Notes: generated by a model from the letters alone, not told the origin. 64,000 bases of DNA from Thermoprotei archaeon (GCA_021162845.1 JAGGXX010000054.1:4537-68536); one strand, 5' to 3'. Counted from the stretch's first letter, positions 23,250 through 61,900 are shown. Program-made: numbers and translations.

Positions 23250-23352
23250 GCCCACCTGGAGATGATGAGCGCGTTGATGCCTGACATATGATGAGAGGAG
23301 CGGGTCTGATCTGAAAATGATATTTAGGATCATCCACTAATTCTCATAGGCT

Positions 23353-23661
23353 ATGGAGGGAACGCTTCGTAAGAGGATAACGGCCATTCTTGAGGAGAAC
23401 GAGGAACCGCTTACCGTAGACGATATAATAACTAGGTTAGGGCTGAGGCCTTATCACAAGAGGTTAGTCTATGGGAGCCTATCGCATATAGCGAAGAGCA
23501 TCAGGAGGAGCGGAGGAATACTGATGATGCGCGCTCCCTACTGCCTCAATTGTGGATACGTGTTCACCGACCTTAAGAGGATAAGGAAACCTAGTAGGTG
23601 CCCACGCTGCAAGAGCGAGAGGATAGCACCTCCGACCTTCATGATAAAGAGACGAGGATGA
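23353..23661 (+). CDS. small wHTH protein with C-terminal zinc ribbon (CxxC...CxxC), putative transcriptional regulator
   Basis: N-terminal helix-turn-helix-like LTVDDIITRLGLRPYHKRLVYGSLSHIAKSI. C-terminal CLNCGYVF...CPRCKSERIAP. Confidence 0.3.
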   Translation: MEGTLRKRITAILEENEEPLTVDDIITRLGLRPYHKRLVYGSLSHIAKSIRRSGGILMMRAPYCLNCGYVFTDLKRIRKPSRCPRCKSERIAPPTFMIKRRG

Positions 23662-28515: not shown

Positions 28516-29505
28516 ATGCTGAACGAATTAAGGGCGTATATAAGCCGTGAAGGGGCCATTGTGATAGAGGATGAGGTCGTCTGTGATGCTTATGAAGGCG
28601 TAGGGAGGTACATGATTGTCACGCATGCACATTATGATCATGTAAGGGGAATACATAGGGCTAGAAGGAGGGGGGTGAGACTGATTAGCACAAATGCTAC
28701 AAAGGACATTCTGGTTGCTCTAGGCAAGGTAAGGGGATATGAAGTAATGGGCATAGAATACGACAAGGATTATGATGTGGGAAAGGGACATGTAAGGCTG
28801 ATAAGGGCGAACCATATACTGGGATCAGCACAGGTAGTCTATGAGGATCAGGAGGGCTTTCGCATAGCATATACAGGGGATTTCCGTCAGCCCGGAACGC
28901 CTATAGTGGATGAACCAGATGTATTAATAATGGAGGCTACGTATGGTAGAAGGGATATGATAAGGCCGCCCCTTGAGAAGGTATATGAGGCCTTTATAGA
29001 CTTAGTCAGAAGGACCTTTGACCGGGAACCCATCAACATATTCGCGTATCATGGGAAGATACAGGAAGCCATGGAGGTCTTGAGGAGCGCATTTCCAGAT
29101 GTTCCTTTTTTAGCCCCCATGAGGATCCTGTGGCTATGTGAAATAGCAAGAAGACATGGAATGAAGATAGGAAAGGTGATACCCTTAGAAAGCGAGGAAG
29201 GATACGAAGTAAGGAGGGGAGGGCGCTACATAGCCTTCTACCATTCAACTTATTTGGGCAGGATCAACAGAGGAATTAGCATTTCCCTCTCCGGATGGAA
29301 TATAGGGAAGGTCGTGAGGAAAATAGGAGCTCGAAGGTACATCGTATCCATTAGCGGACATGCGGATTTCAGACAATTGATGGAGTATGCTGAGGCTGCA
29401 CGACCTAGGCTTCTTCTAGTTGACGGAAGCAGGAGCACGTATGCTGAGGCCTTTGCTAAGGAGGTGAAACGCAGATTAGGCTTACGCGCTATTGTCATGC
29501 CCTAA
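28516..29505 (+). CDS. short beta-CASP-type metallo-beta-lactamase-fold nuclease-like protein
   Basis: MBL motif 2 VTHAHYDHV. Later EATYG and a beta-CASP motif C-like SISGHADFRQLMEY. Confidence 0.45.
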   Translation: MLNELRAYISREGAIVIEDEVVCDAYEGVGRYMIVTHAHYDHVRGIHRARRRGVRLISTNATKDILVALGKVRGYEVMGIEYDKDYDVGKGHVRLIRANHILGSAQVVYEDQEGFRIAYTGDFRQPGTPIVDEPDVLIMEATYGRRDMIRPPLEKVYEAFIDLVRRTFDREPINIFAYHGKIQEAMEVLRSAFPDVPFLAPMRILWLCEIARRHGMKIGKVIPLESEEGYEVRRGGRYIAFYHSTYLGRINRGISISLSGWNIGKVVRKIGARRYIVSISGHADFRQLMEYAEAARPRLLLVDGSRSTYAEAFAKEVKRRLGLRAIVMP

Positions 29506-29514
29506 GGTGAGAGC

Positions 29515-30270
29515 ATGAGCTCGGGAGAATATATAGTCGTAGAGTTATACGAGAGCCCTGTGGATAAACTGAAGAAGGCGGTTTGGAGGATAGTGGGAGC
29601 TGTATATAATCCATTCGTTACCTTTAGTGAAATAGCTGAGGATCCAGACGTATTAGGTCCTATAATTCTGGTAGTTATCTACTTAGCAATCTCATTACTG
29701 AGCAAGGAGCTATATTACGGAAAGGTAATAGTGAACTTCGTAAACCCTAAGACGGGGAGTATAGTTAGATCATCCCAGCTCACGTTTAAGAGCGCTGAGG
29801 AGGCATTGCTCTTCTTAGGTACCACGTTTATGCGCATGATGATCGGATGGGTCCTCACTACATTAGTATTCTGGGCGGTAAGCAATATGCTGGGAGGGGA
29901 GGCCAGAGGTAAGGCTACGTTCATAGCCGTAGGATATCTCTTAGTCCTCGGGATACTGGATATCGCCTTAAGAGGAGTGAACTTCCTAATAGTTACGCAC
30001 GATATGGACGTTATAAAAGTTGAAGTACCCTCTAACATAGATCCCAAGGATCTTCTGCCCAGTATAACCCAAGAGTTGGGGAAGCAATTAGAGGGAAGAG
30101 CTTGGCCATATTCTACGATAGAGAAGTTCATATGGGTTTTATTCAGAGCTTGGCTACTGGGAGCGGGGGTGGCGTTGTGTAACTCGGTATCACGCTTGTC
30201 ATTAAAGAGGGCCATTATAGTAGCTATTGTGGGCTTCTTAGCCATGCTCTTCAGCCAATGGCCTGCTTAG
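29515..30270 (+). CDS. polytopic membrane protein (Yip1-like topology)
   Basis: Soluble N-terminal ~35 aa, then 5 hydrophobic helices. The start lies 9 nt after the upstream gene. Confidence 0.35.
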   Translation: MSSGEYIVVELYESPVDKLKKAVWRIVGAVYNPFVTFSEIAEDPDVLGPIILVVIYLAISLLSKELYYGKVIVNFVNPKTGSIVRSSQLTFKSAEEALLFLGTTFMRMMIGWVLTTLVFWAVSNMLGGEARGKATFIAVGYLLVLGILDIALRGVNFLIVTHDMDVIKVEVPSNIDPKDLLPSITQELGKQLEGRAWPYSTIEKFIWVLFRAWLLGAGVALCNSVSRLSLKRAIIVAIVGFLAMLFSQWPA

Positions 30271-30279
30271 GGGATCAAC

Positions 30280-30993
30280 GTGTCCTTTATGGCTCATATT
30301 AGAATATTGAAGAGGCTCCTAGAGGTATATGGGAGGGGAAGGATAGCGATTTCAATCGATGAGATCAAAGAGAGAGTGAGGGTACCTAGAGATGTCCTCT
30401 TACATTATTTAAAAGAACTAGAGAGAAGGGGGATCGTACAGGTAAATGATGATGAGCTCTTCATACTTGTACCTAGCGTGGAATTGGCGTACCACGCTAT
30501 AAGCATGGGAGCGGATATAGAAGAAGTGGCCTTATATCTAAATTGGAGGGACTTCGAACGTTTCACAGCAATGTGTCTCATGGAGAATGGCTACGAAGTG
30601 ATAGAACACCTGATATTTAAATCGGAGAGGCGAAGGTATGAGGTGGACGTCATAGGCCTTAGGAGGCCATGGGCTATAGTGGTGGACTGTAAGCACTGGA
30701 CGATGATGAGGGGGTCTAGGAGCTCAAAGCTTAAAAGGGCTATAGTAGACCATAGGAGGCGTACTGAGGCGCTGGCCCGTTGCCTTCCTAGGTTGAGGAA
30801 GAGGCTGGGCATCACGCGATGGCATGAAGTGATACTAATCCCAGTCCTCGTGACCTTATATCAGGAGGGAGTGATGCTTTTCGAAGGAGTGCCTCTAGTG
30901 CCTATCTGTGGATTAAACGAATTCCTACAAGAGTTCCAAGGCATAGCCGAGAGCATATTCCTTAAAAAGGTCCCCCTTAACACGCTGATCTGA
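30280..30993 (+). CDS. wHTH domain fused to a PD-(D/E)xK-like (restriction endonuclease/Mrr-like) domain
   Basis: N-terminal HTH-like DVLLHYLKELERRGIVQV. The C-terminal core ...RRRYEVDVIGLRRPWAIVVDCKHW resembles an E-x-D...D-x-K nuclease motif. Confidence 0.35.
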   Translation: MSFMAHIRILKRLLEVYGRGRIAISIDEIKERVRVPRDVLLHYLKELERRGIVQVNDDELFILVPSVELAYHAISMGADIEEVALYLNWRDFERFTAMCLMENGYEVIEHLIFKSERRRYEVDVIGLRRPWAIVVDCKHWTMMRGSRSSKLKRAIVDHRRRTEALARCLPRLRKRLGITRWHEVILIPVLVTLYQEGVMLFEGVPLVPICGLNEFLQEFQGIAESIFLKKVPLNTLI

Positions 30994-31033
30994 GAAACTT
31001 TATCTAAGGGAGTTCCTTAGTAAGGAAAGGAAA

Positions 31034-33451
31034 ATGAACGCGGGTATAGATGTTAGGGAATGGAATTTGGGTCGTATGCTTGACGTGTTATTAAGCTCAC
31101 TTAGAGGTGCTATTAGAAGCAATCATAGGAGAATGGTTGTCCTTACGGGTAAGGATGAGAAGAAGATAGGACTAACTCTAGGCTTGATACTTCGGGAAAG
31201 CCTCAGGCTAATTAGGGATAAGAAGGGATTAGCCGATGTCAGCGTTATTTACGCGTATAAGCCAGCATACGAAGACGCTAAGATTAGGTTGGAGATAGTC
31301 AAGGGCATGCTCAAGGAAAGCGCATGGATACGATTTGAGGCGATAAATTACGCGGAGTCCGAGAAAGTATTAGGCATGACCTACGATGCGGCCGTACTAG
31401 ATCTCATTAATGACCTAAGGCCTAACGATGTGGGAAGGTTAGTGGGCATAGTGAGGGGCGGCGGACTTATAGTCCTCATGACACCATCCTTCGAGGACTG
31501 GGTGAAGAGGATAACGGAGTTCCAGGAGTTACTATCCACGCCACAGCATCCTAAGGAGGAGGTCAGGCATATCTTCATCAAGAGGTTCATAAAGAAGTTA
31601 AAGGAACATGAAGGCATAATGATCTATGATGTTGACAGAGATGAAGCATTAAAGATGCCGGGTAAGATGAAGAAATATGAGGTGAAGAAGAGGGAACTGA
31701 AGCTCCCGGAAAAGGGACGTTTTCAATTAAGGGTGTATAAGCTAGCGCTCACACAGGACCAAGTAGAGGTCCTAAAGCTTATGGAGAAACTCTTCAAGAA
31801 GCCGAAGAAGGGCAAAAAGCTGGTATTGGTGATAACAGCGGATAGGGGTAGGGGTAAGTCATGTGCTGTAGGCATAGGGCTGGCATCACTAGCCCATAGG
31901 ATCAAGAGGATAAAGGGCTTAGCTAAGATAGCGGTCACAGCACCTAGTGTAACGAACGTACAATCATTAATGATGTTAGCGAAGCGAGCTCTAGAAGTAA
32001 TGGGCTACGAAGTCGAGATTGAGGGAAGCGAAGCGGCGATCAAAGGCCTTAAGGCTAAAGGGATTAGAATCAGGTATCTGAATCCCATAGACCTACTTAG
32101 CTCCAACCCAGACATAATTGCAGTTGACGAAGCTGCTGGTCTTCAGGTACCCATGTTGCATAAGATATGGAGGAGGTTTAGCAGAGCCGTATTCTCGTCT
32201 ACTATACATGGGTATGAGGGGGCTGGTAGGGGATTCTCGATAAGATTCCTGAAGAGAATAAGGGACGATCCCAATACCAAGCTCTTGGAATACGAGATGC
32301 ATGAGCCGATAAGGTACGCTGAAGATGATCCGATAGAAAAATGGCTCTTCGATTCGTTATTATTAGACGCGGAACCCGTTAAACTGAGTGAGAAGGACTA
32401 TGAGCTGATAGATGCCAAGCGTGTAAGGTATATAGCTCCGAACCTTGAGGACTGGTTTGCAGGATCAGACGAAGGAAAGCTAAGAGAGTTCGTTGGCATC
32501 TATATACTAGCCCATTACAGAAATAGGCCTAATGACCTAGCCATGATGGCTGATGCACCCCATCATACGATAAGGGCCTTAATGCTCCCTAACGGGAAGA
32601 TAGTGACCTCGATAGAATTAGCTGAGGAAGGGCCTATACCTGAGGACATGATAGAATACCTCAAGTATGGCGGGTGGATCCATGGCAACGTCATCCCCGA
32701 TAGGTTCCTGAAGCATGCGCGTGATGAGAGATTCGCTAAGTACGCGGGATGGAGGATAGTACGCATAGCCACGCATCCTGATGCAATGGATCGTGGGCTT
32801 GGGACATTAGCGATTAAGGAGATATGTGAGGAGGCCCTAGAGAGAGGATATGGATGGGTCGGTGCTGGGTTCGGAGTTAACTACAGATTATTAAGGTTCT
32901 GGATACGCAATGGCTTCATACCGATCCACATAAGCCCTGAGAGAAACCCCGTAAGCGGGGAGTATACCGTAATAGTCGTAAAGCCATTAGAAGATGACGT
33001 TAAGGAGATCATCCTTCGGGCTAATAAGGAGTTTAGGCTTAGATTGCTTAATTCGCTCGTTGATCCTTACGATGATTTAGAGCCAAGGGTCGCGAGGCTC
33101 CTACTTAGAACTTGGGGGGAGCCTGTCTTTGAGGGCTATAAGCCGAAGCTTACTGAGGTACAGCTAGAGAGAGCGGAGAATTACGCCTGGAGCGCTATGA
33201 CCTTAGAAAGCGCCAGTGATTGCATGCGGGAGTTGACCCTCGCCTACTTTTACAATGATGAGACAAGTAGACCTCAGCTCAGCGAGCTACAGGAACTCAT
33301 GCTCATAACGAAGGTGTTACAGGCCAGGAGCTGGAAGAATGCCTGTGATGAGCTAGGGTTAGCCCCTCCAGTCTTAATGAATGGGCTTAAGGACATTGCT
33401 AAGGCCTTGTTAAAATACTACTTTGGCATCGGGAAGAAGGACGTCACATGA
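31034..33451 (+). CDS. tmcA: tRNA(Met) cytidine acetyltransferase TmcA (ac4C synthase, helicase-like ATPase + GNAT)
   Basis: Walker A LVITADRGRGKSCAVGI, then a DUF1726-like N-terminal region. The C-terminal GNAT-like region carries the acetyl-CoA motif (HPDAMDRGLGTLAI). ~800 aa, typical of archaeal TmcA. Confidence 0.8.
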   Translation: MNAGIDVREWNLGRMLDVLLSSLRGAIRSNHRRMVVLTGKDEKKIGLTLGLILRESLRLIRDKKGLADVSVIYAYKPAYEDAKIRLEIVKGMLKESAWIRFEAINYAESEKVLGMTYDAAVLDLINDLRPNDVGRLVGIVRGGGLIVLMTPSFEDWVKRITEFQELLSTPQHPKEEVRHIFIKRFIKKLKEHEGIMIYDVDRDEALKMPGKMKKYEVKKRELKLPEKGRFQLRVYKLALTQDQVEVLKLMEKLFKKPKKGKKLVLVITADRGRGKSCAVGIGLASLAHRIKRIKGLAKIAVTAPSVTNVQSLMMLAKRALEVMGYEVEIEGSEAAIKGLKAKGIRIRYLNPIDLLSSNPDIIAVDEAAGLQVPMLHKIWRRFSRAVFSSTIHGYEGAGRGFSIRFLKRIRDDPNTKLLEYEMHEPIRYAEDDPIEKWLFDSLLLDAEPVKLSEKDYELIDAKRVRYIAPNLEDWFAGSDEGKLREFVGIYILAHYRNRPNDLAMMADAPHHTIRALMLPNGKIVTSIELAEEGPIPEDMIEYLKYGGWIHGNVIPDRFLKHARDERFAKYAGWRIVRIATHPDAMDRGLGTLAIKEICEEALERGYGWVGAGFGVNYRLLRFWIRNGFIPIHISPERNPVSGEYTVIVVKPLEDDVKEIILRANKEFRLRLLNSLVDPYDDLEPRVARLLLRTWGEPVFEGYKPKLTEVQLERAENYAWSAMTLESASDCMRELTLAYFYNDETSRPQLSELQELMLITKVLQARSWKNACDELGLAPPVLMNGLKDIAKALLKYYFGIGKKDVT

Positions 33452-33797
33452 GAGAAGGTCTTTTTACACGCAAAGGCTTTACTTCAGACACTTCTATGAA
33501 GCTCCACTTAAGGCCTCTGACTCCCTTCCACCTCACGGCTATGTAGGCTTTAAAGCCAAAGGCCTTCGCAAAACTCAAGAGTTTCTCGACCTGTTTCTCG
33601 TTAAGGTATATTCGACTTCCCTTGGTTTCCTTGACCTGATATACCCTTCTATCGTCACCTCTAGCAGCCATTATATCACATGGTATGTTCTTACTACCAC
33701 TTATGGGTATGCGTACAGCGAAGAAGCCTTTCTGCCTCAGAAGTTCAATGAGTTCAATCTCCGCCCTATATCCTTTACGGAAGGCCATCGGGTACAC
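33444..33797 (-). CDS. hjc: Holliday junction resolvase Hjc (archaeal PD-(D/E)xK resolvase)
   Basis: MAFRKGYRAEIELIELLRQKGFFAVRIPISGSKNIPCDIMAARGDDRRVYQVKETKGSRIY...FGFKAYIAVRWKGVRGLKWSFIEV matches the Hjc consensus (RKG..E.ELI.LL...GF.AVR...SG....D..A......Y..E.K....YL.......FG..........W.FIEV). Confidence 0.8.
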   Translation of the reverse strand: MYPMAFRKGYRAEIELIELLRQKGFFAVRIPISGSKNIPCDIMAARGDDRRVYQVKETKGSRIYLNEKQVEKLLSFAKAFGFKAYIAVRWKGVRGLKWSFIEVSEVKPLRVKRPSLM

Positions 33798-33859
33798 CTC
33801 GTGCCATCTTCATATATACCTAAATCTTCATCCATAATATTGTATGGAGGTGGTGATAT

Positions 33860-34513
33860 ATGGTCAAGGTCAGGTGGTTGGGACATGCATGCTTCGCAGT
33901 ACAGGGGGAGAACGTCATCGTAGTTACTGATCCGCATAACGGTGTGGATGTAGGTCTTAGACCTCCAGATGTAAAGGCCGATATAGTGTTAATATCCCAT
34001 GGCCATTACGATCACGCCGATGGACTCGAGATAGTCTCCAAGCCGGATACTAAGGTCTTCGATAGCTTCGAGGGTGAAGCATCTCATAAAGGAGTTAAAA
34101 TAATCGGCATTAAGGCGTTCCACGATAAATCTCACGGAGAGATCAGGGGAGAGAACTACATATACCTTTTCGATGTCGATGGTATTAGGTTCTGTCACCT
34201 AGGCGACTTAGGGCATATCCTAGAGGACGAACAGCTTAGGAAAATGAGCGATGTAGACGTATTGTTCATTCCAGTTGGGGGAGTATTCACCATAGATGCT
34301 GAGGAGGCTAAAGAGGTTGTAAGGCTAGTGAGGCCGAAGATAGCGATACCAATGCATTATAAGATACCGAAACTAAGGTTACCCATAGGCAGGGTGAAGG
34401 AGTTCCTCAAAGGGCTGAAGGATGTAGAGCTCAGAAATAATGATACCTTAGAAGTCACTAGGGAGAACCTACCCCTCGAAACGAGGATAGTCGTGCTTAA
34501 GTATCGAGGATGA
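33860..34513 (+). CDS. UPF0173-family MBL-fold metal-dependent hydrolase
   Basis: MVKVRWLGHACFAVQG... and VLISHGHYDHADG. ~217 aa, typical of this archaeal family. Confidence 0.6.
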   Translation: MVKVRWLGHACFAVQGENVIVVTDPHNGVDVGLRPPDVKADIVLISHGHYDHADGLEIVSKPDTKVFDSFEGEASHKGVKIIGIKAFHDKSHGEIRGENYIYLFDVDGIRFCHLGDLGHILEDEQLRKMSDVDVLFIPVGGVFTIDAEEAKEVVRLVRPKIAIPMHYKIPKLRLPIGRVKEFLKGLKDVELRNNDTLEVTRENLPLETRIVVLKYRG

Positions 34514-34627
34514 AGTAAGGCTAAGATATGTAAGGGACCTCCTACTTTTTACGCTATGAATAAATAGGCATTTAGCTCCCATTATTGTTGGAATACATTC
34601 GGTCTACTCTCTCGGGGTTGAGAGTTC

Positions 34628-34984
34628 GTGAGGCATCGAGATGAGCCAGGAGAGGCATGGTCACTCGTTCTCTCGGACTACTTAGTCGTTGCCATAAAGA
34701 CCGATGAAGGAGTTAGGATAATGTACGATGAGGAGGCCGAGGAGTTTGCCATAAGGAGATTAGTTGACGTATTCAAAAGGGATTATAAAATCTACTGCAA
34801 GGATTGTGGGGCCATACTTACTCCGGAAAACGTCGGTCAGATAACTAAGGACGAAGAAGGCAATATAACAGGTCGATGCATATATTGTTTAGATGATGAA
34901 ATACTACACATGATAAGGTGCAGGAAGAAGGCCTTGTTAATTAAGACCCGGCCTGAGATAAGCCGGACCGGGGATAAAATGTGA
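34628..34984 (+). CDS. small protein with C-terminal zinc ribbon (CxxC-x24-CxxC); first gene of an overlapping 5-gene operon
   Basis: YCKDCGAIL...GRCIYCLDDE. GTG start. Its stop overlaps the next GTG start. Confidence 0.3.
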   Translation: MRHRDEPGEAWSLVLSDYLVVAIKTDEGVRIMYDEEAEEFAIRRLVDVFKRDYKIYCKDCGAILTPENVGQITKDEEGNITGRCIYCLDDEILHMIRCRKKALLIKTRPEISRTGDKM

Positions 34985-35253
34985 GGTACCTTATAGTTAA
35001 ATGCCCATATTGTAAGAACTACCTTACGATGCCTGAAGGTGTACGTACTAGGACATGCCCCTATTGTGGGAAAAAACTTAAGGCAAGCGGCCTCATAATA
35101 ATGGCGAGAGCTAAAGACGGGCGGGAAGCAGCCCTTCTAGTGAGGATGTTGAAAGCAAGGGAAGCAGGAATAGCGGAGGTCATCTATGGCAAGGGAAAGC
35201 ATAAACACAGTAAAGGAGGAGCTGAAAGCCAGTCTAATATTACCTTATATTAA
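34981..35253 (+). CDS. zinc-ribbon protein (CPYC...CPYC)
   Basis: MRYLIVKCPYCKNYLTMPEGVRTRTCPYCGKKL. GTG start. Confidence 0.35.
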   Translation: MRYLIVKCPYCKNYLTMPEGVRTRTCPYCGKKLKASGLIIMARAKDGREAALLVRMLKAREAGIAEVIYGKGKHKHSKGGAESQSNITLY

Positions 35254-36685
35254 ACTATACTTCAGGATATCACCTACGGAGGAAGAGCTCTTTTCCGTGA
35301 CGTTAGCTGAGGACAGGAGCACATGTGAGGTAAGGCTTAGCCTAGAAGAGGTAATAGAGGACATAGAGGGAGGAATCGCTTACGGCCTCATAGCGGATCA
35401 CATATTACCAGCTAAGGGGGACGTGGCACATATCAAGGAGCTAATACTCCAGAGCTGGATCAAGGAGGAGCTCAAGATCCTTCATGAAGAGTACGAGGAT
35501 CTGTTCTATGAGCTATTCATAGACCCTAGCTACTTCATCATGAGCCATTACCTCCGTAAGGGTAAGGTACTCTTCATGTTTAAACAACATTATAGGCATC
35601 TAGCCTCAACCGCCTTAGAGCAGCTCGAGAGAGAACAGGTTATGTGGAGAGTTCTCAGGAAAATGGAGAGAGACGGTTACGTAATCATAAAGGATTCCAA
35701 GGTTAGGCCTTTAAGGGACATTACTCGGGAATTGGGTGAAATTAAGAAGCGGAGTATGATCCCTATTAAGGGCTTTTTAAAGGCTCCAATGGGCCTCTCT
35801 ATTTTCTCGTTATTAATTCGCCTAATTAAGGTACCAACCATAGGTGAGGAAAACGGTATATGGAGTTACCCGGTATGGGTGGAGACTGATGCAGGGCTCA
35901 AGCCACTTAAAGCTGAGGAAGAGGTTAAAACAGGCGTAATAAGGGATGGGGCAAGGCTGAGAAGACTTGGAGGGATGATAAATACTGCGTACTTAGCAAC
36001 ATGGGAGAATGGGGAAAAGAGGGTCATCAAGGTATTTAAGGAGTGGACTGATCTTAAATGGCTACCATTGGCCTTCTGGGCCCTAGGTGCGTATACATTT
36101 GATCCAACGGGCAAGGGACGCCTTATAAATGAATTCACCATGAATAGGAAATTCAAGAGAGCCGGTATCAGAGTTCCTGAGATCTACCACATAGATTTAA
36201 GTAAGAAGATCATCGTAGAGCAGTTCGTTCCAGGCCTCACGTTGAAGGACGTCATAGTTAATATACTCAAAGGTAAGCACCATGTAGAGGACGTCGAGCA
36301 CATAAGATCCGCTTTACATGAGCTGAGCATAGTACATGAAAAGGGCTTCGTAATAGGCGATGCTAATCCCACCAATGTGATAATTAATGATAAGAACGTG
36401 TTTTTCGTGGATTTAGAACAGGCGAGAGAAGGGGATAAGTTCTCCTGGGATCTAGCCACCATGATGTTCTTCTTAGCGCATTACGTCCAGGGATCAGCGA
36501 GGAACCTAGACATGATAATCAAAGCCATGGTAGAGGGCTATACCGAAAGAGGCGATGTAGAGGTAATCAAGAAGGCCTTAAAGATACCTTATCTGAGGGT
36601 CTACGCTTTCTTCGCGTATCCCCATGCCATCTATAAGGTGTATAAGTTGGTCTCCAAATACGCAGGAGGAATTGAGATAAGGTGA
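35186..36685 (+). CDS. atypical protein kinase-like protein (Bud32/RIO/Kdo-kinase superfamily C-terminal domain) with ~240-aa N-terminal region of unknown function
   Basis: The C-terminal half has a G-rich loop region, conserved Lys (KRVIKVFKE), catalytic-loop-like VIGDANPTNVII and metal-binding VDLEQA (a DFG equivalent). It overlaps the next gene by 4 nt. Confidence 0.5.
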   Translation: MARESINTVKEELKASLILPYIKLYFRISPTEEELFSVTLAEDRSTCEVRLSLEEVIEDIEGGIAYGLIADHILPAKGDVAHIKELILQSWIKEELKILHEEYEDLFYELFIDPSYFIMSHYLRKGKVLFMFKQHYRHLASTALEQLEREQVMWRVLRKMERDGYVIIKDSKVRPLRDITRELGEIKKRSMIPIKGFLKAPMGLSIFSLLIRLIKVPTIGEENGIWSYPVWVETDAGLKPLKAEEEVKTGVIRDGARLRRLGGMINTAYLATWENGEKRVIKVFKEWTDLKWLPLAFWALGAYTFDPTGKGRLINEFTMNRKFKRAGIRVPEIYHIDLSKKIIVEQFVPGLTLKDVIVNILKGKHHVEDVEHIRSALHELSIVHEKGFVIGDANPTNVIINDKNVFFVDLEQAREGDKFSWDLATMMFFLAHYVQGSARNLDMIIKAMVEGYTERGDVEVIKKALKIPYLRVYAFFAYPHAIYKVYKLVSKYAGGIEIR

Positions 36686-37389
36686 TGAGCCTAAGGGTAA
36701 AGGAGATAGGAGACGTATTTAACAGAATAGCTAAATCCTTTGATAAGACCCGTAGAAAGCCTTGGAGGTGCGCGATAGAGGCTATAGAGGGGTTAACGGA
36801 GGGTAGGATACTGGACGCTGGATGCGGAAACGGGAGGCACCTCCTTCTGTTATCCAGCATGGGCTTTAGGGTAGTAGGCGTAGACCTCTCCAAGGAGCTC
36901 ATTAGAATAGCGAAAAGGCGAATTAAGGAATTCTCGCTAACTAACGAGGCTGAGCTCATAGTGGGCGATATACGCTTTCTGCCGTTCAAAGATGAGGTAT
37001 TCGACGGCGTACTGGCTATTGCGGTGATACATCACATACCCGGCGTAGTGGAAAGGGTTAGGACCTTAAAGGATATGAAAAGGGTCATGAAGCCCCATGC
37101 CAAGGCAGTATTAACGGCATGGAGCATATGGAGTTTAAAGAGGCTCTGGAGAGCAGTAATGTATAAGTTTAAGAGGCCTTTCTCATCGGAGTTCGGCGAT
37201 GCGTTCATACCATGGCGCTTGGGCTCGGATACCGTATGGAGGTTCTATCACCTCTTCACAGCTAGGGAGTTCAGGAAAATAATCGAAAATGCGGGACTAA
37301 AGGCTATTAAGAGCTACGGGGAAAGGAAGAAGTATGGGCTTTTCCCAGAAAACTTAGTAGTAGTGGCGGTGAAAATTGACACTCACTAA
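36682..37389 (+). CDS. class I SAM-dependent methyltransferase, Trm9-like (Methyltransf_11) candidate tRNA wobble-uridine methyltransferase
   Basis: Motif I ILDAGCGNGRHL closely resembles the Trm9/ALKBH8 VLDxGCGNGKYL motif. It overlaps the start of elp3. Confidence 0.5.
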   Translation: MMSLRVKEIGDVFNRIAKSFDKTRRKPWRCAIEAIEGLTEGRILDAGCGNGRHLLLLSSMGFRVVGVDLSKELIRIAKRRIKEFSLTNEAELIVGDIRFLPFKDEVFDGVLAIAVIHHIPGVVERVRTLKDMKRVMKPHAKAVLTAWSIWSLKRLWRAVMYKFKRPFSSEFGDAFIPWRLGSDTVWRFYHLFTAREFRKIIENAGLKAIKSYGERKKYGLFPENLVVVAVKIDTH

Positions 37390-38821
37390 AGCTCGAGTTA
37401 GGCCTAAGAAGCCGGTGAGAATGGCATCTGGCGTTACGGTAGTAGCCATAATGACCAAGCCCTTCCCTTGTCCACATGGCAAATGCATATACTGTCCCGG
37501 AGGACCGGAAATAGGCACACCACAAAGCTATTTAGAGGATTCGCCAGCTGTCGCCAGGGCATTAAGGCATGGTTTTGATCCATATGAACAGGTGAGAGCT
37601 AGGCTGATGCAATACGTGGTCATGGGGCACGAGCCCTCAAAAGTCGAGCTTATAATCATGGGTGGGACGTTCACAGCACTCCCACTAGACTACCAAGAGT
37701 GGTTCGTAGCTATGGCCTTAGAGGCGATGAACAGATTCCCAAAGCCCAAAGCTAAGAGCTGGATTAGCCTGGAGAAAGCTCAACAAAGGAATGAAAAAGC
37801 CAGAGTGAGGTGCATAGGCATTACCTTTGAGACTAGGCCCGACTGGGCTAAGGAGAAACAAATAGACAGGATGCTAAGAATGGGAGGTACGAGGGTGGAG
37901 ATAGGTGTACAGTCGATATACGATGATGTCCTGAAGAGGATAGAGAGAGGACATACGGTAAGGGATACCATAGAGGCTACGCGGCTACTCAAGGACGCAG
38001 GATTTAAGGTATGTTATCACATAATGCCAGGGCTACCCGGATCTGATATAGATAGGGACTTCGATATGTTTAAGACGATATTTGAAAACCCGGATTTCCG
38101 GCCAGATATGCTGAAGATATACCCGACGCTGGTCATACCTGGGACTAAGCTCTACGAGATGTGGAAGAGGGGCGAATATAATCCTATGACAACTCAGGAT
38201 GCCTTGGAACTTCTCATTAAGATAGCGCCTCACATACCTAAGTGGGTCAGGATAATGAGAATACAGCGGGATATACCGCTTCACCATGTAGCTGCTGGCG
38301 TTAATATAGGCAACCTAAGACAGGTCTTCGAGGATTTAGTGAGGAGGAGGGGTATCAGATACCGCGAGATACGGTTCAGGGAAGTCGGTATCAGAATGAT
38401 AAAGTATGGAGAGGTACCAAGTGAGGAGAACATAAAGCTGCTCAAAGAGGAATATGAGGCAAGTCATGGGACTGAGGTCTTTTTATCCTTTGAAGATGTG
38501 AAAAAGGACATCCTCATAGGATTCCTTAGGCTTAGGATACCGTCTTCTGAGGCCCAGAGATGGGAGGTTAAACCCAGGACTGCTATAGTTAGGGAGTTAC
38601 ACGTATACGGACCTCAGGTTCCCATAGGCGATAGAGAGGAAATGGCATGGCAGCATAAGGGGTATGGCAGACGCTTGCTCATGGAGGCCGAGAGGATAGC
38701 CCTCGAGGAATATGATGCCAGGAGGATGTTGATAATCTCGGGTATAGGGGTTAGAGACTACTATAGAAGGCTGGGCTATCGTAGACATCCTCATTCCACG
38801 TATATGTTAAAGAAGCTTTAA
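37376..38821 (+). CDS. elp3: Elongator complex protein 3 homolog (radical SAM + GNAT; tRNA uridine34 carboxymethyl-transferase)
   Basis: Radical SAM cluster CPHGKCIYCPGG. Conserved KPVRMASGVTVVAIMTKP upstream of it. C-terminal GNAT region with HKGYGRRLLMEAERIA. The track start is TTG (37376); the first ATG is at 37421. Confidence 0.8.
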   Translation: MTLTKARVRPKKPVRMASGVTVVAIMTKPFPCPHGKCIYCPGGPEIGTPQSYLEDSPAVARALRHGFDPYEQVRARLMQYVVMGHEPSKVELIIMGGTFTALPLDYQEWFVAMALEAMNRFPKPKAKSWISLEKAQQRNEKARVRCIGITFETRPDWAKEKQIDRMLRMGGTRVEIGVQSIYDDVLKRIERGHTVRDTIEATRLLKDAGFKVCYHIMPGLPGSDIDRDFDMFKTIFENPDFRPDMLKIYPTLVIPGTKLYEMWKRGEYNPMTTQDALELLIKIAPHIPKWVRIMRIQRDIPLHHVAAGVNIGNLRQVFEDLVRRRGIRYREIRFREVGIRMIKYGEVPSEENIKLLKEEYEASHGTEVFLSFEDVKKDILIGFLRLRIPSSEAQRWEVKPRTAIVRELHVYGPQVPIGDREEMAWQHKGYGRRLLMEAERIALEEYDARRMLIISGIGVRDYYRRLGYRRHPHSTYMLKKL

Positions 38822-40393
38822 TCAGCCGCTGAAAAGCAGTAATATCACCAAGGGGGAGCTCACATCGGACGAAAGATATTCCTCAACGGTGGATATGATC
38901 TTATTCTTATCCCATATCGGAACCCTTAACATACCATATCTTTTCTTCACGTAGCCTAGGATGAGCCTGGCACTAATAGGCGCGCTGTCGTCTAGGACTA
39001 GGACGATAGATTTACCGAGCTTATCTAGGAGTACGTGATTTCGAGCTAGATCTCCGATAGTGGTCACAACTACTATCCTACCTCTAAAGCCAGCCATAAT
39101 CTCCCCTAAGCCTAAGCCTAAGGGGCTCAGAAGGCGGTAAGCTATGTCTATCACGTCAACGGGGAGCTTAATCGCATATCGTCTGCTCTTCACATCATAG
39201 TCGGCCTTAGCTTTACTTATGAGGACTTCATTCAGCAAGCAACGTAAACGTGGGCATGAGATCGCGTTAACTATGATAAGGCCCTTTGTTCTGGCCAGCA
39301 GTGTCTTTAGGATTTCTACAAGGTGGTTTACAGACGAAGAAAGTGGAGGTAATTGTGGTGGAATGAGGCCTTCGACCCTTACCAGGTATTCGATCGTTGG
39401 ATCACGTAGCTTTAGAAAATCTGAGACGATGTGCCTTACAAGAACGTAGGATGTAAGGTGTCGCTTTAAATCAGCCTTGCCCTTTATTTGAATTCTCCCG
39501 AAAAGCTGGGTTCGCATGTAATTTTCCAGAATAGGTTCGCCTAGCTCTACTACGAGGAGTTCCTTTACATGATCGCTTAATGACTTAAACCAAGACGGAG
39601 GGGAGGAGAGCATATGAAGGGGGGCAAATATCGATATGCCTAATACGCTTATCTCGGTATCCTTGCCTAGGCCTTGGAGGTAAGAGGTTACATAGGAGTA
39701 CGAGTAACCAGCGCATAATATGGATCGCTCACTGAGGTCCTCTGGAATCACGTTAAACTCGAACTCAGAGAACAGACGTTCATATATCTTGGATAACGTG
39801 ATCCTTCTCTCCACGTTACGAACGAATGACTCGTGCATCCATCTATGAGGGAACTCCCAGTGCTTCGAGAATACGGGTTCAGCTCTTACGCTAGAGACTT
39901 CTATGTCGACAAGACCTAGGAAATCGAATTCGGGTAAGCCTAGTACAATTGGTACCTCAATGGCCTCTGAAAGTTCGGAAGCTATCTCCATGAAACGGGA
40001 CAAGTCATTCACGTTAAGGGGTTCGAGGTAAAGCACAGAAGAGCAAGAAGCGGCTAAACGCGGATCAAAACCTAAGCTTGGTGATGTTAATATTAATAAT
40101 GAACCTCGAATCCCTGAGAGGACTACCTCATGAAGAGAGGAGGATATCTCAAATAATTCCTGGGAAGAAAGGGCTAAAGCCGCCCTACAGCCAGTGACAG
40201 AAGCACCTAAACATATACTTAAGGCGGTTATGGGATCTTCCACTGTCATGAAGTTGAGGTTCCTTCTAGTGAGAGACATCCTACCTAACGAATCCGAGGT
40301 ACATATGAGAAGATCATAAGATAGCTTATCCAGTGTATGAAGGATCGTCTGTGACAAGCTCAAGAGCTCACGTCTAGGGATGTCAGGGGACAT
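38822..40393 (-). CDS. hypothetical protein with a 2-oxoacid:ferredoxin oxidoreductase alpha (POR_N, Pyr-domain)-like N-terminal region, apparently degenerate
   Basis: VEDPITALSICLGASVTGCRAALALSSQEL resembles the POR_N core (E-D-E...GAS.AG.RA.TATS). I see no Fe-S Cys cluster and no clear GDG...NN TPP motif. Confidence 0.3.
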   Translation of the reverse strand: MSPDIPRRELLSLSQTILHTLDKLSYDLLICTSDSLGRMSLTRRNLNFMTVEDPITALSICLGASVTGCRAALALSSQELFEISSSLHEVVLSGIRGSLLILTSPSLGFDPRLAASCSSVLYLEPLNVNDLSRFMEIASELSEAIEVPIVLGLPEFDFLGLVDIEVSSVRAEPVFSKHWEFPHRWMHESFVRNVERRITLSKIYERLFSEFEFNVIPEDLSERSILCAGYSYSYVTSYLQGLGKDTEISVLGISIFAPLHMLSSPPSWFKSLSDHVKELLVVELGEPILENYMRTQLFGRIQIKGKADLKRHLTSYVLVRHIVSDFLKLRDPTIEYLVRVEGLIPPQLPPLSSSVNHLVEILKTLLARTKGLIIVNAISCPRLRCLLNEVLISKAKADYDVKSRRYAIKLPVDVIDIAYRLLSPLGLGLGEIMAGFRGRIVVVTTIGDLARNHVLLDKLGKSIVLVLDDSAPISARLILGYVKKRYGMLRVPIWDKNKIISTVEEYLSSDVSSPLVILLLFSG

Positions 40394-40535: not shown

Positions 40536-40635
40536 GCCGGGGTGCCCGAGTGGACCAAGGGGCTGGCCTGGAGAAGGCCTAGAAAGCCAGTTCCCCATAC
40601 GGGGAGCGCGGGTTCGAATCCCGCCCCCGGCGCCA
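40536..40635 (+). tRNA. tRNA-Ser (class II, long variable arm, G73 discriminator, encoded CCA) with a short (~11 nt) intron in the anticodon loop; anticodon most likely GGA
   Basis: Hand-folded. Acceptor GCCGGGG/CCCCGGC. D arm CCC-GAGTGGACCAA-GGG. Anticodon stem CTGGC/GCCAG enclosing 18 nt (CTGGAG + intron + A). Variable arm hairpin CCCC-ATAC-GGGG. T arm GCGGG-TTCGAAT-CCCGC. Discriminator G, then CCA. A TATA-like ttataaag lies ~45 bp upstream. Confidence 0.75.
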
Positions 40636-58905: not shown

Positions 58906-61900
58906 CTAAATATCTTTTCCCACTTCACGAATGAGCTTGACCCTATCCTTTACCTCGCGATATAATTCCTTGATCACTTCTTGATAATCAGCCTTGCCTA
59001 GCTCTATTACGTCCATGAGTTTTTCTAACTTACGGGTGCGCTCTTCAGAGACGAGATCTTTGTAATTAGTTGATAGATATTTATAGACCTCTATGCCTAA
59101 TTTCGTCGGTATAAGCCTGCGTCTTTTCTGCGATTCAATTACGTACTTGCGCTCGATGAGCGTACGTATTATCTTGGCATAAGTAGATGGTCTACCTATG
59201 CCCCTTCTCTTCATAAGATCAACGACATCGCCTTGGCTAAATAACATCACACTTGGGAGCTTCGCGTGTGTGGCTTCTACTATCCGTAGCCTATCGCCTT
59301 TCTTCATCTCAGGGATGAAGAGGGACTCCTCTATAGGATAAACCCTCGAGAACCCATCGTATATCACCTTGGTTATACCTGTGACCTCCTTCTGTATATC
59401 GCCTATCTTGAGAAGGGTCTTGAGCCGTAAGACCTTAGCTGACTTCATTTGACTAGCCAGGAAGCGACGGAATATCATATCATAGAGCCTATAGTGAAGC
59501 CAGGTAAGCGGGCGGGGTGTTCTAATTATGCCATCGCGTATTAGCTGGGCTAGCTTATCTACATCAAGGGGACGAGTAGGGCGAATGCATTCATGTGCTC
59601 CACCGGTACCCCAGTCTCTACCTTGATAGTACTCCTCACCTAAGGATTCCCTGATGTACTCCTTCGCTATCATCATGCCTACCGCTGAGACCCTCGTGCT
59701 GTCAGTCCTATGATATGTGATTAAACCGAACTCGAATAGGTCTTGAGCGAGTGACATAGTCCTCGCTACATCCATTCCCAATCTAGATGACGCCTCTCTT
59801 AGTAAAGCATCTGTCGTAAAGGGCGGTGGAGGGTTTATCGTGGCTTCATGGATCTCAGCATCGACTACCACGCACTCGGATCCCTGAAGCTCCTTTACGA
59901 ACTCCTTAAGAGGTTTTTCCACGTATACGTCTTTAAGCATAAGCCTAAGGCCGTTTTCCAGCGTTATGTATATGTGATCCGCTATGCTATCCCTATGTTC
60001 ATTATAACGTTGGATTATCCAACCTAGGACAGGCGTCTGAACTCTACCAGCGGATAATCGCCTACTTTTGAACTGCTCCCATAATTCCTCGCTGAGGGCG
60101 AAGCCTATCCACCTATCCTCAAGCCTACGGACTATTTGCGCCTCTACTAAACGTTCATCTATATCCCTAGGGTTCTTAAGGGCTTCGAGGATGGCACGCT
60201 TTGTGATCTCATGGAATTCGATGCGCCTTATGTAGCTAGTATAGGGCTTTATCACAGTGGCTATATCCCAGCCTATCTTCTCGCCCTCTGTATCAGGATC
60301 CGTTCCTATCAGAATTATGTCGACCTCACGGGCTAGGTCCCTAAGCGTGTAAACGACTTCAGCCTTATCGGTGAATTCGGTGGACTTACATAGGGGGCAT
60401 GCGTCCAGACCCACGAATTGTTCACCACAGTTCGCACATCGCCTTATGGTCGAGTATACTGGTACGAAGCGCTTGTCTATGATCCTAGTGCCATAAAAGT
60501 CCTCTGGAGTTAACACTAAGTCGAACACGTGACCGCCACTAGCTATTATCGAGAGCATGTAAGTGCCAGTACTAGTCTCGTATACCACATAACGACCGAT
60601 CCTCCTAAGGGAGGGCCTGCCGAAGAAGCTAGCAATAGTTCTGGCCTTACTAGGCGACTCTACGATCATCAACGCGCTTTTCACGGGATCCTTGAATTCC
60701 ACCTTGATCTTTCCGGCCAGTAGGTCGCTAATTATGCGTCTATCGCGGTCTATCTCATTTATAAGAGATCTAACATCAACTTCCTCTAGAGATCTCCATG
60801 AAATATCTTCTATGAACCAACGGGTCTTCCTAACTAAGCCTTGAAAGACCTTATCGTTATCAATTATGACTATGGAGGCTCCCTTTGATATACCTCCTGC
60901 GAACATCCTAGAGGTACGTCCGCTGGCCTGTATGTACGTCATGGTATCTGGGACTATGACCCGCAAGGTGCCCTCCACTTCCTCTAATAAGATGTAGGGA
61001 CTTTCCTGGATCTTCTTCTTTACATCCTCACGTGCTAATAACTCACATACCTTATGATAGCCGAGTAGAAATAGCTCTTGGGCTTTGCCTAATGTACCCT
61101 TTAATTTAGTACCTTCTTCTATCGCCTTTCTGATCTCGGCTACTCTATTAGGCGGAAGTTCTCTTAGATACCGCATTATGCGCACGAAGAGTTTATCCAC
61201 TTCATCACGCTCCTTGCCCTCAAGATAATCCCTTAAGTCGAATAACAGCGAGGCAATCCTGAAGGGATGCACTTCCTTAGCCTCTAGGCTGAAACGTAAC
61301 TTAGGAACACCTACGAATACCGCGTAACGTATCCTCTGTGGAAGATCAAGCCCTCTAACTAATAACCCATAGTACGTAGCAACTCCGACCAGCACATCGA
61401 CTTCGCCCCTGAGAAACCTCTCTATCTGGTCACCCTTCTTTGATGAGACCACTACCTCAGCCCTGACACCATGTTGGTTTAAGAACTCAGAGAGCTCCTC
61501 TGCATAACTTGCTCCCTTATCTATTGGTACGAATACTAGCCCACCATCACCGAATAGCCTTATGATCCTTAAGACCTCCTTCTCAATATCCTCCTTAGGC
61601 TTATGGTAAATGTCCTCGATGTTCCTGATGAGCTCGGATCTACTGCCTGCTTCGAAGCCTAACAGTTCTCGAAATAGCCTAACCCTAAGACCCCTAGCCC
61701 TACCGGTAGCGCTGGATACGACCAATACGCCTAGATCCCGCTTACTTAAGGACTCCTTAATCTCCCTCTCAAGTTTTCGTATATTTGAAACTGCTTCCTC
61801 TAGCTTTACCTTATAGGACTCGTCCTGTCTAGCGAACGTGATTAAGAAGGGAATGCTTCTCCTCAACCTTATGAGCTCAAGCCCTAGTTCTATTAAATTC

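Follow-up and report, generated by a model that had tools for sequence, protein, structure and literature searches.

The DNA analyzed here, referred to as the window, is a stretch of 64,000 nucleotides (nt) from a Thermoprotei archaeon (GCA_021162845.1, JAGGXX010000054.1:4537-68536), and it matches a "Thermoprotei archaeon" metagenome-assembled genome (MAG). Between positions 34628 and 38821, the plus strand carries five genes, denoted A–E, of which the last two are a Trm9-family methyltransferase and Elp3. Pairing of Trm9 with Elp3 is already known in archaea; the extension of the pair by A, B, and C is new and restricted to one clade. Open reading frame (ORF) A (34628-34984; 118 aa) encodes a zinc ribbon confined to the clade, and ORF B (34981-35253; 90 aa) a zinc ribbon of the DUF1922 type. 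ORF C (35186-36685; 499 aa) has an N-terminal part of ∼250 aa (35186..35941, plus strand), in which what is left of a Pol-beta-type nucleotidyltransferase domain leads into helices, then a winged helix and finally a disordered linker, followed by a C-terminal Bud32/RIO-like atypical kinase domain (35942..36685, plus strand). ORF D (36682-37389; 235 aa) encodes a Trm9-family tRNA carboxyl methyltransferase acting on 5-carboxymethyluridine at position 34 (cm5U34), and ORF E (37376-38821; 481 aa, with a TTG start) encodes Elp3. Each of the five has orthologs in five to six other lineages at 36%–82% identity, and on this conservation we consider all five to be real genes.

All four junctions within the cluster overlap. 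As read from the window sequence, the A/B junction is a 4-nt GTGA overlap, and the C/D junction is likewise a 4-nt GTGA overlap, with an ATG directly after. The B/C overlap is much longer (68 nt) and of neither the ATGA nor the GTGA type; the start codon of C (ATG at 35186) is preceded by GGAGG. At the D/E junction (14-nt overlap), GGTGA stands in front of the TTG start of E, which was chosen because the KKPVR...SGV N terminus conserved among Elp3 orthologs would otherwise be excluded. An earlier note on this DNA had described overlaps of the GTGA/ATGA type at every boundary; overlap indeed occurs at all four, and the GTGA form at two. A Shine-Dalgarno-like motif precedes each start at the overlapping junctions, and the sole sizeable intergenic gap of the cluster is the 114 nt located 5' of A. 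This operon structure suggests that A–E are co-transcribed.

The 114-nt gap contains two conserved elements. The first is a box resembling a B recognition element and TATA box, CGCTATGAATAAATA (34552..34566, plus strand), a putative promoter that is kept in the window and in three homologous loci (L001, L003, and L006) and is degenerate in a fourth (L090). The second is a 22-nt leader element, GGAATACATTCGGTCTACTCTC (34590..34611, plus strand), which ends 16 nt before the start codon of A. Alignment of the upstream regions showed this element to be nearly invariant in five lineages although ORF A itself is only 37%–53% identical among them. It occurs once per locus, starts always 35–39 nt ahead of the start codon at a variable distance from the TATA box (12 to 23 nt), and includes the near-palindrome GAATnnATTC. 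An RNA fold in the leader was unsupported, with RNAalifold returning four weak pairs and no covariation. The only other match to the leader in the window, at 59574, lies inside the coding sequence of a putative reverse gyrase and was set aside as chance. The conserved upstream elements support a transcription unit that opens with A, and the 22-nt block suggests specific regulation, in which it may serve as an operator or as an element of the 5' untranslated region.

We identified E as Elp3 from its sequence, in agreement with the earlier note. The protein scored 716.5 bits against TIGR01211 (cutoff 350; E = 1.7e-215), with residues 11-481 covered; has the Pfam domains Radical_SAM, Radical_SAM_C, and Acetyltransf_1 (GNAT/KAT); and contains in its translation the Cys-x4-Cys-x2-Cys motif CPHGKCIYC. 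Its orthologs in the clade are 73%–82% identical to it. The Elp3 of Methanocaldococcus infernus makes cm5U, and by orthology the Elp3 of the window is predicted to form cm5U34.

D is a class I methyltransferase (Pfam Methyltransf_11). A search with the single sequence matched several uncharacterized methyltransferases through the Rossmann core only; Yarrowia Trm9 (5cm2_Z) ranked sixth but gave the longest alignment, nearly full length. We then used as a test profile the 20 methyltransferases adjoining Elp3 in diverse archaea. Its top match was 5cm2_Z (E = 1.4e-28), aligned over the full length (profile positions 20-221 against chain residues 3-190), and the runner-up, PH0226 (E = 9e-20), aligned over the core only. 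The invariant or nearly invariant columns among the 20 proteins were R22, D43, G45, G47, D66, H115/H116, W145, R185, Y187, and N222. In yeast Trm9, residues R29, D72, H116, W145, W168, R241, Y243, and N271 are essential, and their mutation abolishes function (PMC4678810). Alignment of hidden Markov models (HMMs) equated R22, D66, H115-H116, W145, R185, Y187, and N222 of D with R29, D72, H116, W145, R241, Y243, and N271 of yeast Trm9, respectively; the equivalent of W168 is the tryptophan of a PW motif, present in the D of the window. Trm9 being its best full-length match, and none of the eight essential yeast residues being lost, D is by sequence a genuine Trm9-family enzyme. The family assignment made in the earlier note was therefore right; the stretch GCGNGRHL, which it had taken for a Trm9 motif, is in itself only a generic S-adenosylmethionine (SAM)-binding motif.

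Elp3 and Trm9 together very probably specify the conversion of U34 to cm5U34 and on to 5-methoxycarbonylmethyluridine (mcm5U34), both activities having been demonstrated for archaeal orthologs. The pairing of the two genes is not new: A Trm9-Elp3 gene cluster was reported from Sulfolobus solfataricus in 2008 (Grosjean et al. 2008) and restated later, and an active archaeal Trm9 is known from Haloferax volcanii, where Trm9-Trm112 makes mcm5U (van Tran et al. 2018).

A and B are both small zinc-ribbon proteins, as had been described, each with four invariant cysteines. A is acidic (pI 5.5), with the spacing CxxC-x23-CxxC. It had no Pfam, NCBIfam, or PDB match in single-sequence and profile searches, and a homolog search with it returned only a 99%-identical copy; its orthologs were collected from syntenic loci (L001, L003, L006, and L090) and are 37%–53% identical. 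B is basic (pI 9.9), with a poorly conserved tail rich in lysine and arginine, and is 100% identical to MCD6510401.1 of a "Thermoprotei archaeon" MAG. It matched DUF1922 (PF09082) at 40.2 bits (cutoff 30; E = 4e-10), and its profile aligned over residues 3-63 to PDB 1gh9, the structure of MTH1184 (E = 6e-9). Across the clade, B is 42%–61% identical to that of the window, and it overlaps C in all six lineages by 4–68 nt. A literature search found nothing on DUF1922 or MTH1184. In another locus group (L173-L175, 5001-5243), a DUF1922 gene lies directly 3' of gatC-gatA-gatB, the genes for a tRNA-dependent amidotransferase, so that the family has a second setting related to tRNA.

Two identities considered for the zinc ribbons were rejected. 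Neither protein is detectably similar to Kti11/Dph3, as the earlier note had suggested: There was no zf-CSL match (at E up to 5 for A and up to 0.01 for B) and no Kti11/Dph3 chain among the PDB matches at E up to 5-10. At the sequence level, neither is Trm112, with no match to Pfam Trm112p or to solved structures, and the signature found near the N terminus of Trm112, [C/D]PX[C/D] (PMC5372719), is absent from the alignments. No Trm112-like ORF was found elsewhere within the 64-kb window either; the only other small ORF with a Cys4 zinc ribbon, at 23350-23658 on the plus strand, looks like a helix-turn-helix plus zinc-ribbon protein and is unlike Trm112.

Library scans of C confirmed the Bud32/RIO-like domain proposed earlier, restricting the match to residues ∼310-467 and finding none over the first ∼250. 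The protein matched the NCBIfam model arch_bud32 at 68.2 bits (E = 6e-19), below the cutoff of 125, and matched Pfam RIO1 partially at 27.5 bits (cutoff 22). Its best PDB sequence matches were Bud32 proteins, aligned through the alphaC glutamate, the catalytic and metal-binding loops, and a DKAVDL-type motif. The catalytic loop reads GDANPTN in C and HGDLTTSN in Bud32, and the metal-binding loop VDLEQA in C and IDFGL in Bud32; a motif of C, DKxSWDLA, is conserved. Residues K282, E316, D392, and D409 are invariant across 21 aligned family members, N397 is invariant inside the Elp3-linked subfamily, and D392, N397, and D409 align to the HGDLTTSN and IDFG motifs of Bud32. The strand at 278-283 in the AlphaFold model (pLDDT, the predicted local distance difference test, of 72.8) suggests that K282 is the beta3 lysine. 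A Foldseek search with this model placed PRPK/Bud32 closest (target TM-scores 0.65-0.74) and Rio2 next, the latter aligned over >320 columns; a winged helix lies at residues ∼115-175, ahead of the kinase domain. With its Lys, Glu, Asp, Asn, and Asp kept, the kinase domain looks catalytically competent from its sequence. A comparison with Hrr25/Kti14, a kinase of the CK1 type, had been drawn in the earlier note and was not borne out: The C of the window did not match Pfam Pkinase at E ≤ 0.01, its PDB matches included no kinase of the CK1 type, and canonical protein kinases were reached weakly by the C family profile, far behind Bud32.

The N-terminal half of C revealed where the protein may have come from. 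We searched a profile of its first ∼250 residues against 1.84 billion representative proteins, which returned close orthologs and ∼20 distant representatives (470-575 aa) of the same architecture. The distant members start with a Pol-beta-type nucleotidyltransferase motif and match Pfam Polbeta and NTP_transf_2; in the subfamily of the window, the catalytic segment of the nucleotidyltransferase is deleted, leaving a gap at alignment columns ∼38-66. By sequence, C therefore derives from an archaeal family with the architecture nucleotidyltransferase – winged helix – Bud32-like kinase, for which NCBIfam has no dedicated model. The wider family was matched in at least 459 metagenome loci, of which 80 (L093-L172) were examined, together with L091 and L092. 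A gene of ∼450 aa combining a metallo-beta-lactamase (MBL) fold with RMMBL, similar to RNase J/aCPSF, lies directly downstream in 55 of the 80 loci, at a median distance of 29 nt. Upstream, 34 of the 80 have a gene similar to ADP-forming acyl-CoA synthetase and 18 a zf-AN1 protein; the latter was considered as a relative of A or B and rejected (hhalign probability 1%–3%).

How far does the association extend? A homolog search with C returned only five clusters (36%–98% identity), to which a profile search added one protein, P0007. Every contig with these C proteins has A-B-C, followed by Trm9-Elp3 where the contig is long enough, and the order A-B-C-D-E recurs, always the same, in six related lineages of uncultured Thermoprotei. 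Identity to the window ranges over 37%–53% for A, 42%–61% for B, 36%–51% for C, 45%–56% for D, and 73%–82% for E, and over 29%–48% for the next gene downstream, F. We surveyed, in addition, 80 archaeal Elp3 loci from species-representative genomes, Asgard representatives included, by scanning them with HMMs of the cluster. A Trm9-like gene stands directly beside elp3 in at least 17 of the 80, in Culexmicrobium, Desulfurococcales, Ignisphaera, Zestosphaera, Sulfolobales, Nitrososphaerota, and Methanomethylicia; the pairing is ancient. None of these other 80 loci has A, C, or F. A general linkage of the kinase to Elp3 was accordingly rejected, there being no instance in the 80 loci, which derive from GTDB, in L091/L092, or in the 80 metagenome loci of the wider family: The co-localization with elp3 across archaea that the earlier note had asked about exists in one narrow clade and never in the wider family.

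A general linkage of DUF1922 to Elp3 was rejected as well, being confined to Culexmicrobium-like loci. Among the 80 loci, DUF1922 accompanies Trm9-Elp3 only in Culexmicrobium, a sister lineage, in the order DUF1922-TrmO-Trm9-Elp3 and with no kinase. In the Culexmicrobium-like loci (L010, 3522-8265; L177/L178), one strand carries a Trm5/Tyw2-type methyltransferase and a V4R/ACT protein, and the other carries DUF1922, a TrmO-like gene (150 aa), Trm9, and Elp3, so that the TrmO-like gene stands where the window has its kinase gene.

The surroundings of the operon include several further genes. TmcA (31034-33451) ends 1.18 kb upstream of A; between them lie Hjc (33444-33797, minus strand) and an MBL-fold gene for a UPF0173-type hydrolase (33860-34513), and an MBL+RMMBL gene is located farther away (28516-29505). 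The genes from the MBL+RMMBL gene to the UPF0173-type hydrolase, among them a Yip1-like membrane protein and an Mrr-like/wHTH protein, are syntenic with the operon across the clade. The earlier note had placed TmcA, Hjc, and two MBL-fold genes nearby, and the coordinates agree. Comparison of L001 and L003 with the window over 28516-34513 showed one lineage with an insertion of an acylphosphatase and a rhomboid gene and with Hjc inverted.

Downstream, gene F (38822..40393, minus strand; 523 aa) is convergent with elp3 and abuts its stop codon. It encodes a highly divergent protein similar to IorA and to the alpha subunit of 2-oxoacid:ferredoxin oxidoreductases, with a score of 65.7 bits (E = 2.6e-18) against TIGR03336 (IOR_alpha), whose cutoff is 650.9; Fer4 domains are kept only by its ortholog in L090. 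Elp3 requires acyl-CoA as well as reduced ferredoxin, and IorA-type enzymes yield both. F abuts or overlaps the 3' end of elp3 in every lineage whose contig extends to it (the window, L001, L005, L006, L008, and L090), and its membership in the Trm9-Elp3 system is uncertain. A type II tRNA gene of 97 nt (40536-40632, plus strand), with a long variable arm and an insertion of ∼14 nt in the anticodon loop (an intron), was not named by ARAGORN; its anticodon was read as GGA, for serine. It was considered as an Elp3 substrate and set aside, since with this anticodon it is probably no U34 tRNA. Finally, an ORF of 1242 aa at 58906-62634 (minus strand), with ATPase motifs of the helicase type at its N terminus and a type IA topoisomerase part after them, is one that we take to be reverse gyrase; if so identified, it would indicate a hyperthermophile host.

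Taken together, our overall picture is of a trm9-elp3 core with A, B, and C as accessory subunits, a tentative reading that falls just short of probable. Using SAM together with acetyl-CoA (or acetate), Elp3 would make cm5U34 on tRNA, which Trm9 would methyl-esterify to mcm5U34. In one clade of uncultured hydrothermal Thermoprotei, the trm9-elp3 pair would have been extended 5' by A, B, and C, expressed from one conserved promoter and leader and translationally coupled to trm9-elp3. C would have been recruited from the widespread nucleotidyltransferase-kinase family, with loss of the nucleotidyltransferase active site. A, B, and C may then be accessory subunits on the same tRNA-enzyme complex. 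C might be a switch driven by ATP, working as an ATPase or by autophosphorylation, that controls the binding or release of tRNA or the assembly of the enzymes; it has precedents in Bud32, a tRNA-linked ATPase of KEOPS, and in Rio2, an ATPase of the pre-40S particle that combines a winged helix with a kinase fold. A classical substrate kinase appears the less likely role. B, and perhaps A, may be a small zinc-binding adaptor for tRNA or for partner proteins, B being the best candidate because it always overlaps C and is found with trm9-elp3 in Culexmicrobium also.

We infer that a complex forms, that C is active as an ATPase or kinase, and that Elp3 or Trm9 is affected. That A-B-C are truly linked in function to trm9-elp3, as the operon structure suggests, is in our judgment a fair possibility. 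A stronger version, which we regard as unlikely, is that A-B-C, Trm9, and Elp3 form a multisubunit "mini-Elongator" in which C, a Bud32-derived ATPase/kinase with a winged helix, gates the loading or release of tRNA, and a Cys4 ribbon protein either brings in tRNA or supplies the radical-SAM cluster with electrons; if true, it would be an independent, convergent control layer of the Kti11/Kti12/Hrr25 type and would provide the first accessory factors known for archaeal Elp3.

Several observations weigh against accessory subunits. Most archaea have Elp3, and many have Trm9, with none of A, B, and C, judging from the survey of 80 loci. Recombinant archaeal Elp3 is active alone in vitro, and recent work holds that archaeal Elp3 probably acts alone; reviews write "Elp3? 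+ alpha" for possible extra factors. The sequences of A, B, and C change much more quickly than that of Elp3 (36%–61% vs. 73%–82% identity). No elp3, trm9, or DUF1922 gene was found near the kinases of the wider family in L091/L092 and the 80 metagenome loci, and DUF1922 has other contexts, downstream from GatCAB in one lineage and alone in Vulcanisaeta. Moreover, a block of ∼12 genes is syntenic in the clade (RMMBL-Yip1-Mrr-like-TmcA-Hjc-MBL-A-B-C-D-E-F), so the conserved order may partly reflect shared descent and not selection. Since this larger block is also conserved, the recurrent gene order is weaker evidence than it seems at first sight; the architecture of the operon itself is stronger evidence.

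The most serious alternative is that A-B-C are functionally independent of the pair, landed upstream of trm9-elp3 in the ancestor of the narrow clade, and were retained there by descent. They may keep an RNA-processing role ancestral to the nucleotidyltransferase-kinase family, co-transcribed within a loose super-operon of translation and RNA housekeeping and without effect on U34. The company kept by the wider C family, whose neighbor is an MBL+RMMBL RNase gene in 55 of 80 loci but elp3 in none, fits this explanation, as do the synteny of the whole ∼12-gene neighborhood in the clade, including the RMMBL gene of the window (28516-29505), the varied contexts of DUF1922, and the activity of Elp3 alone in vitro. 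On the other hand, the C/D and D/E overlaps, with no internal gap large enough for a promoter, tie the expression of A–C to that of trm9-elp3. The arrangement has also survived to 36% identity of C, while the region around TmcA and Hjc was rearranged and synteny was lost past F. In addition, it is specifically the Elp3-linked subfamily that lacks the nucleotidyltransferase motif, which suggests a functional change, and DUF1922 has been linked to trm9-elp3 independently in Culexmicrobium. On balance, we consider an independent A-B-C somewhat unlikely.

Another possibility shifts the emphasis to the zinc ribbons, with B and/or A standing in for a known small helper that binds zinc or iron, either a Trm112-like activator of Trm9 or a rubredoxin-type electron carrier, like Kti11/Dph3, for the [4Fe-4S] cluster of Elp3, and with C minor or regulatory. 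Such a role would be compatible with accessory subunits. It draws on the requirement of Trm9 for Trm112 in yeast and Haloferax and on the atypical size (130-140 aa) of crenarchaeal Trm112, both known from the literature; on the CxxC...CxxC pattern of four invariant cysteines in A and in B; on the presence of B with trm9-elp3 even where the kinase is absent, in Culexmicrobium; and on the lack of a Trm112-like ORF elsewhere in the 64-kb window. However, A and B have no sequence similarity to Trm112, to zf-CSL/Kti11, or to their solved structures, and the Trm112 signature is missing from both. Most Trm9-Elp3 loci have no DUF1922 nearby, and the window is only 64 kb long, so that the gene for a canonical Trm112 may lie outside it. 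We judge a cofactor role of this kind quite unlikely.

C could also be a regulatory protein kinase that phosphorylates Elp3, Trm9, or another protein and thereby tunes U34 modification, as Hrr25/Kti14 does for Elongator. All of its catalytic residues are intact, and its gene shares an operon with the putative targets. The domain belongs, however, to the Bud32/RIO group; members of this group have no substrate-binding activation segment and are mainly ATPases acting on RNA-protein complexes. Together with the failure to match Pkinase or CK1-type kinases and the weak reach of the family profile to canonical protein kinases, well behind Bud32, this makes a regulatory kinase very unlikely.

Descent of A/B and C from the same ancestors as Kti11/Dph3 and Hrr25, with the operon as an ancestral Elongator accessory network, has in its favor only the coincidence of protein types in one operon (Trm9 and Elp3 together with a kinase and a small zinc protein) and is scarcely conceivable, given that there is no zf-CSL or Kti11 similarity, that the kinase resembles Bud32/RIO and its nucleotidyltransferase-kinase family has no relation to CK1, and that the association is limited to a single derived clade, none of the other 80 archaeal Elp3 loci, Asgard included, having it. 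Homology with the eukaryotic network is effectively refuted at the level of sequence and distribution. The absence of homology to Kti11 and Hrr25 and the narrow clade mean that "counterpart," the word used in the earlier note for the relation of the operon to the Elongator accessory network, can only stand for an independent analog, as suggested by the structure of the operon. In other respects, the proposal survived the points on which it could have failed: The methyltransferase is of the Trm9 family, the gene order recurs in other genomes, and the kinase-like domain keeps its catalytic residues.

Returning to A, B, and C as accessory subunits, the operon provides concrete, clonable candidates for proteins that assist Elp3 and Trm9 in archaea, and it offers a first way into the function of DUF1922 and of the abundant nucleotidyltransferase / winged-helix / Bud32-like kinase family. 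If the functional link is true, archaea and eukaryotes would each have recruited, on their own, an ATP-using regulator and small metal-binding partners to Elp3; otherwise, the locus would be a known Trm9–Elp3 cluster within a locally syntenic region. A literature search found nothing linking Elp3 to a Bud32-like kinase.

Comparison with known systems places the locus among several partial relatives. The eukaryotic Elongator helpers Kti11/Dph3, Kti12, and Hrr25/Kti14 follow the same logic, in that Elp3 works alongside a regulator that uses ATP and a small protein that binds metal, and Trm9 acts at a later step of the pathway. The title of PMC6511879 calls Kti12 PSTK-like. A, B, and C share no homology with these helpers, their association with Elp3 is confined to one archaeal clade, and C is neither CK1-like nor a P-loop ATPase of the Kti12/PSTK type; A, B, and C would be functional analogs, and not homologs, of the eukaryotic proteins. 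Trm112, the zinc-knuckle activator of Trm9, Mtq2, Trm11, and Bud23, is the small Cys4 zinc protein that one would expect beside Trm9, and B does accompany trm9-elp3 in two lineages, but A and B lack both a sequence match to Trm112 and its signature motif. B is a member of the DUF1922 family typified by MTH1184 (1gh9), other members of which occur in unrelated contexts.

For C, the closest relative in sequence and fold of the kinase domain is Bud32/PRPK of the KEOPS complex, and both are linked to modification of the tRNA anticodon loop. In contrast to Bud32, a compact protein of ∼200 aa, C has 499 aa and falls below the family cutoff (68 vs. 125 bits); it bears an N-terminal extension of ∼250 aa with a winged helix and has DLEQA in place of DFG; and it belongs to a separate paralogous family, with no Kae1 fused to it and none adjoining it in the six lineages. 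Rio2 appears to share with C the succession of a winged helix and an atypical kinase, and C has a partial RIO1 match and a D-x-x-Q metal-binding loop that, as we read the sequence, resembles the RIO motif; however, the TM-scores of C are lower for Rio2 than for Bud32, its N terminus is longer and holds a nucleotidyltransferase remnant, and it has no context of ribosome biogenesis. The nearest system overall is the archaeal Trm9-Elp3 pair, with the same two enzymes in the same adjacency, to which the window adds A, B, and C upstream, with overlapping junctions and a conserved leader.

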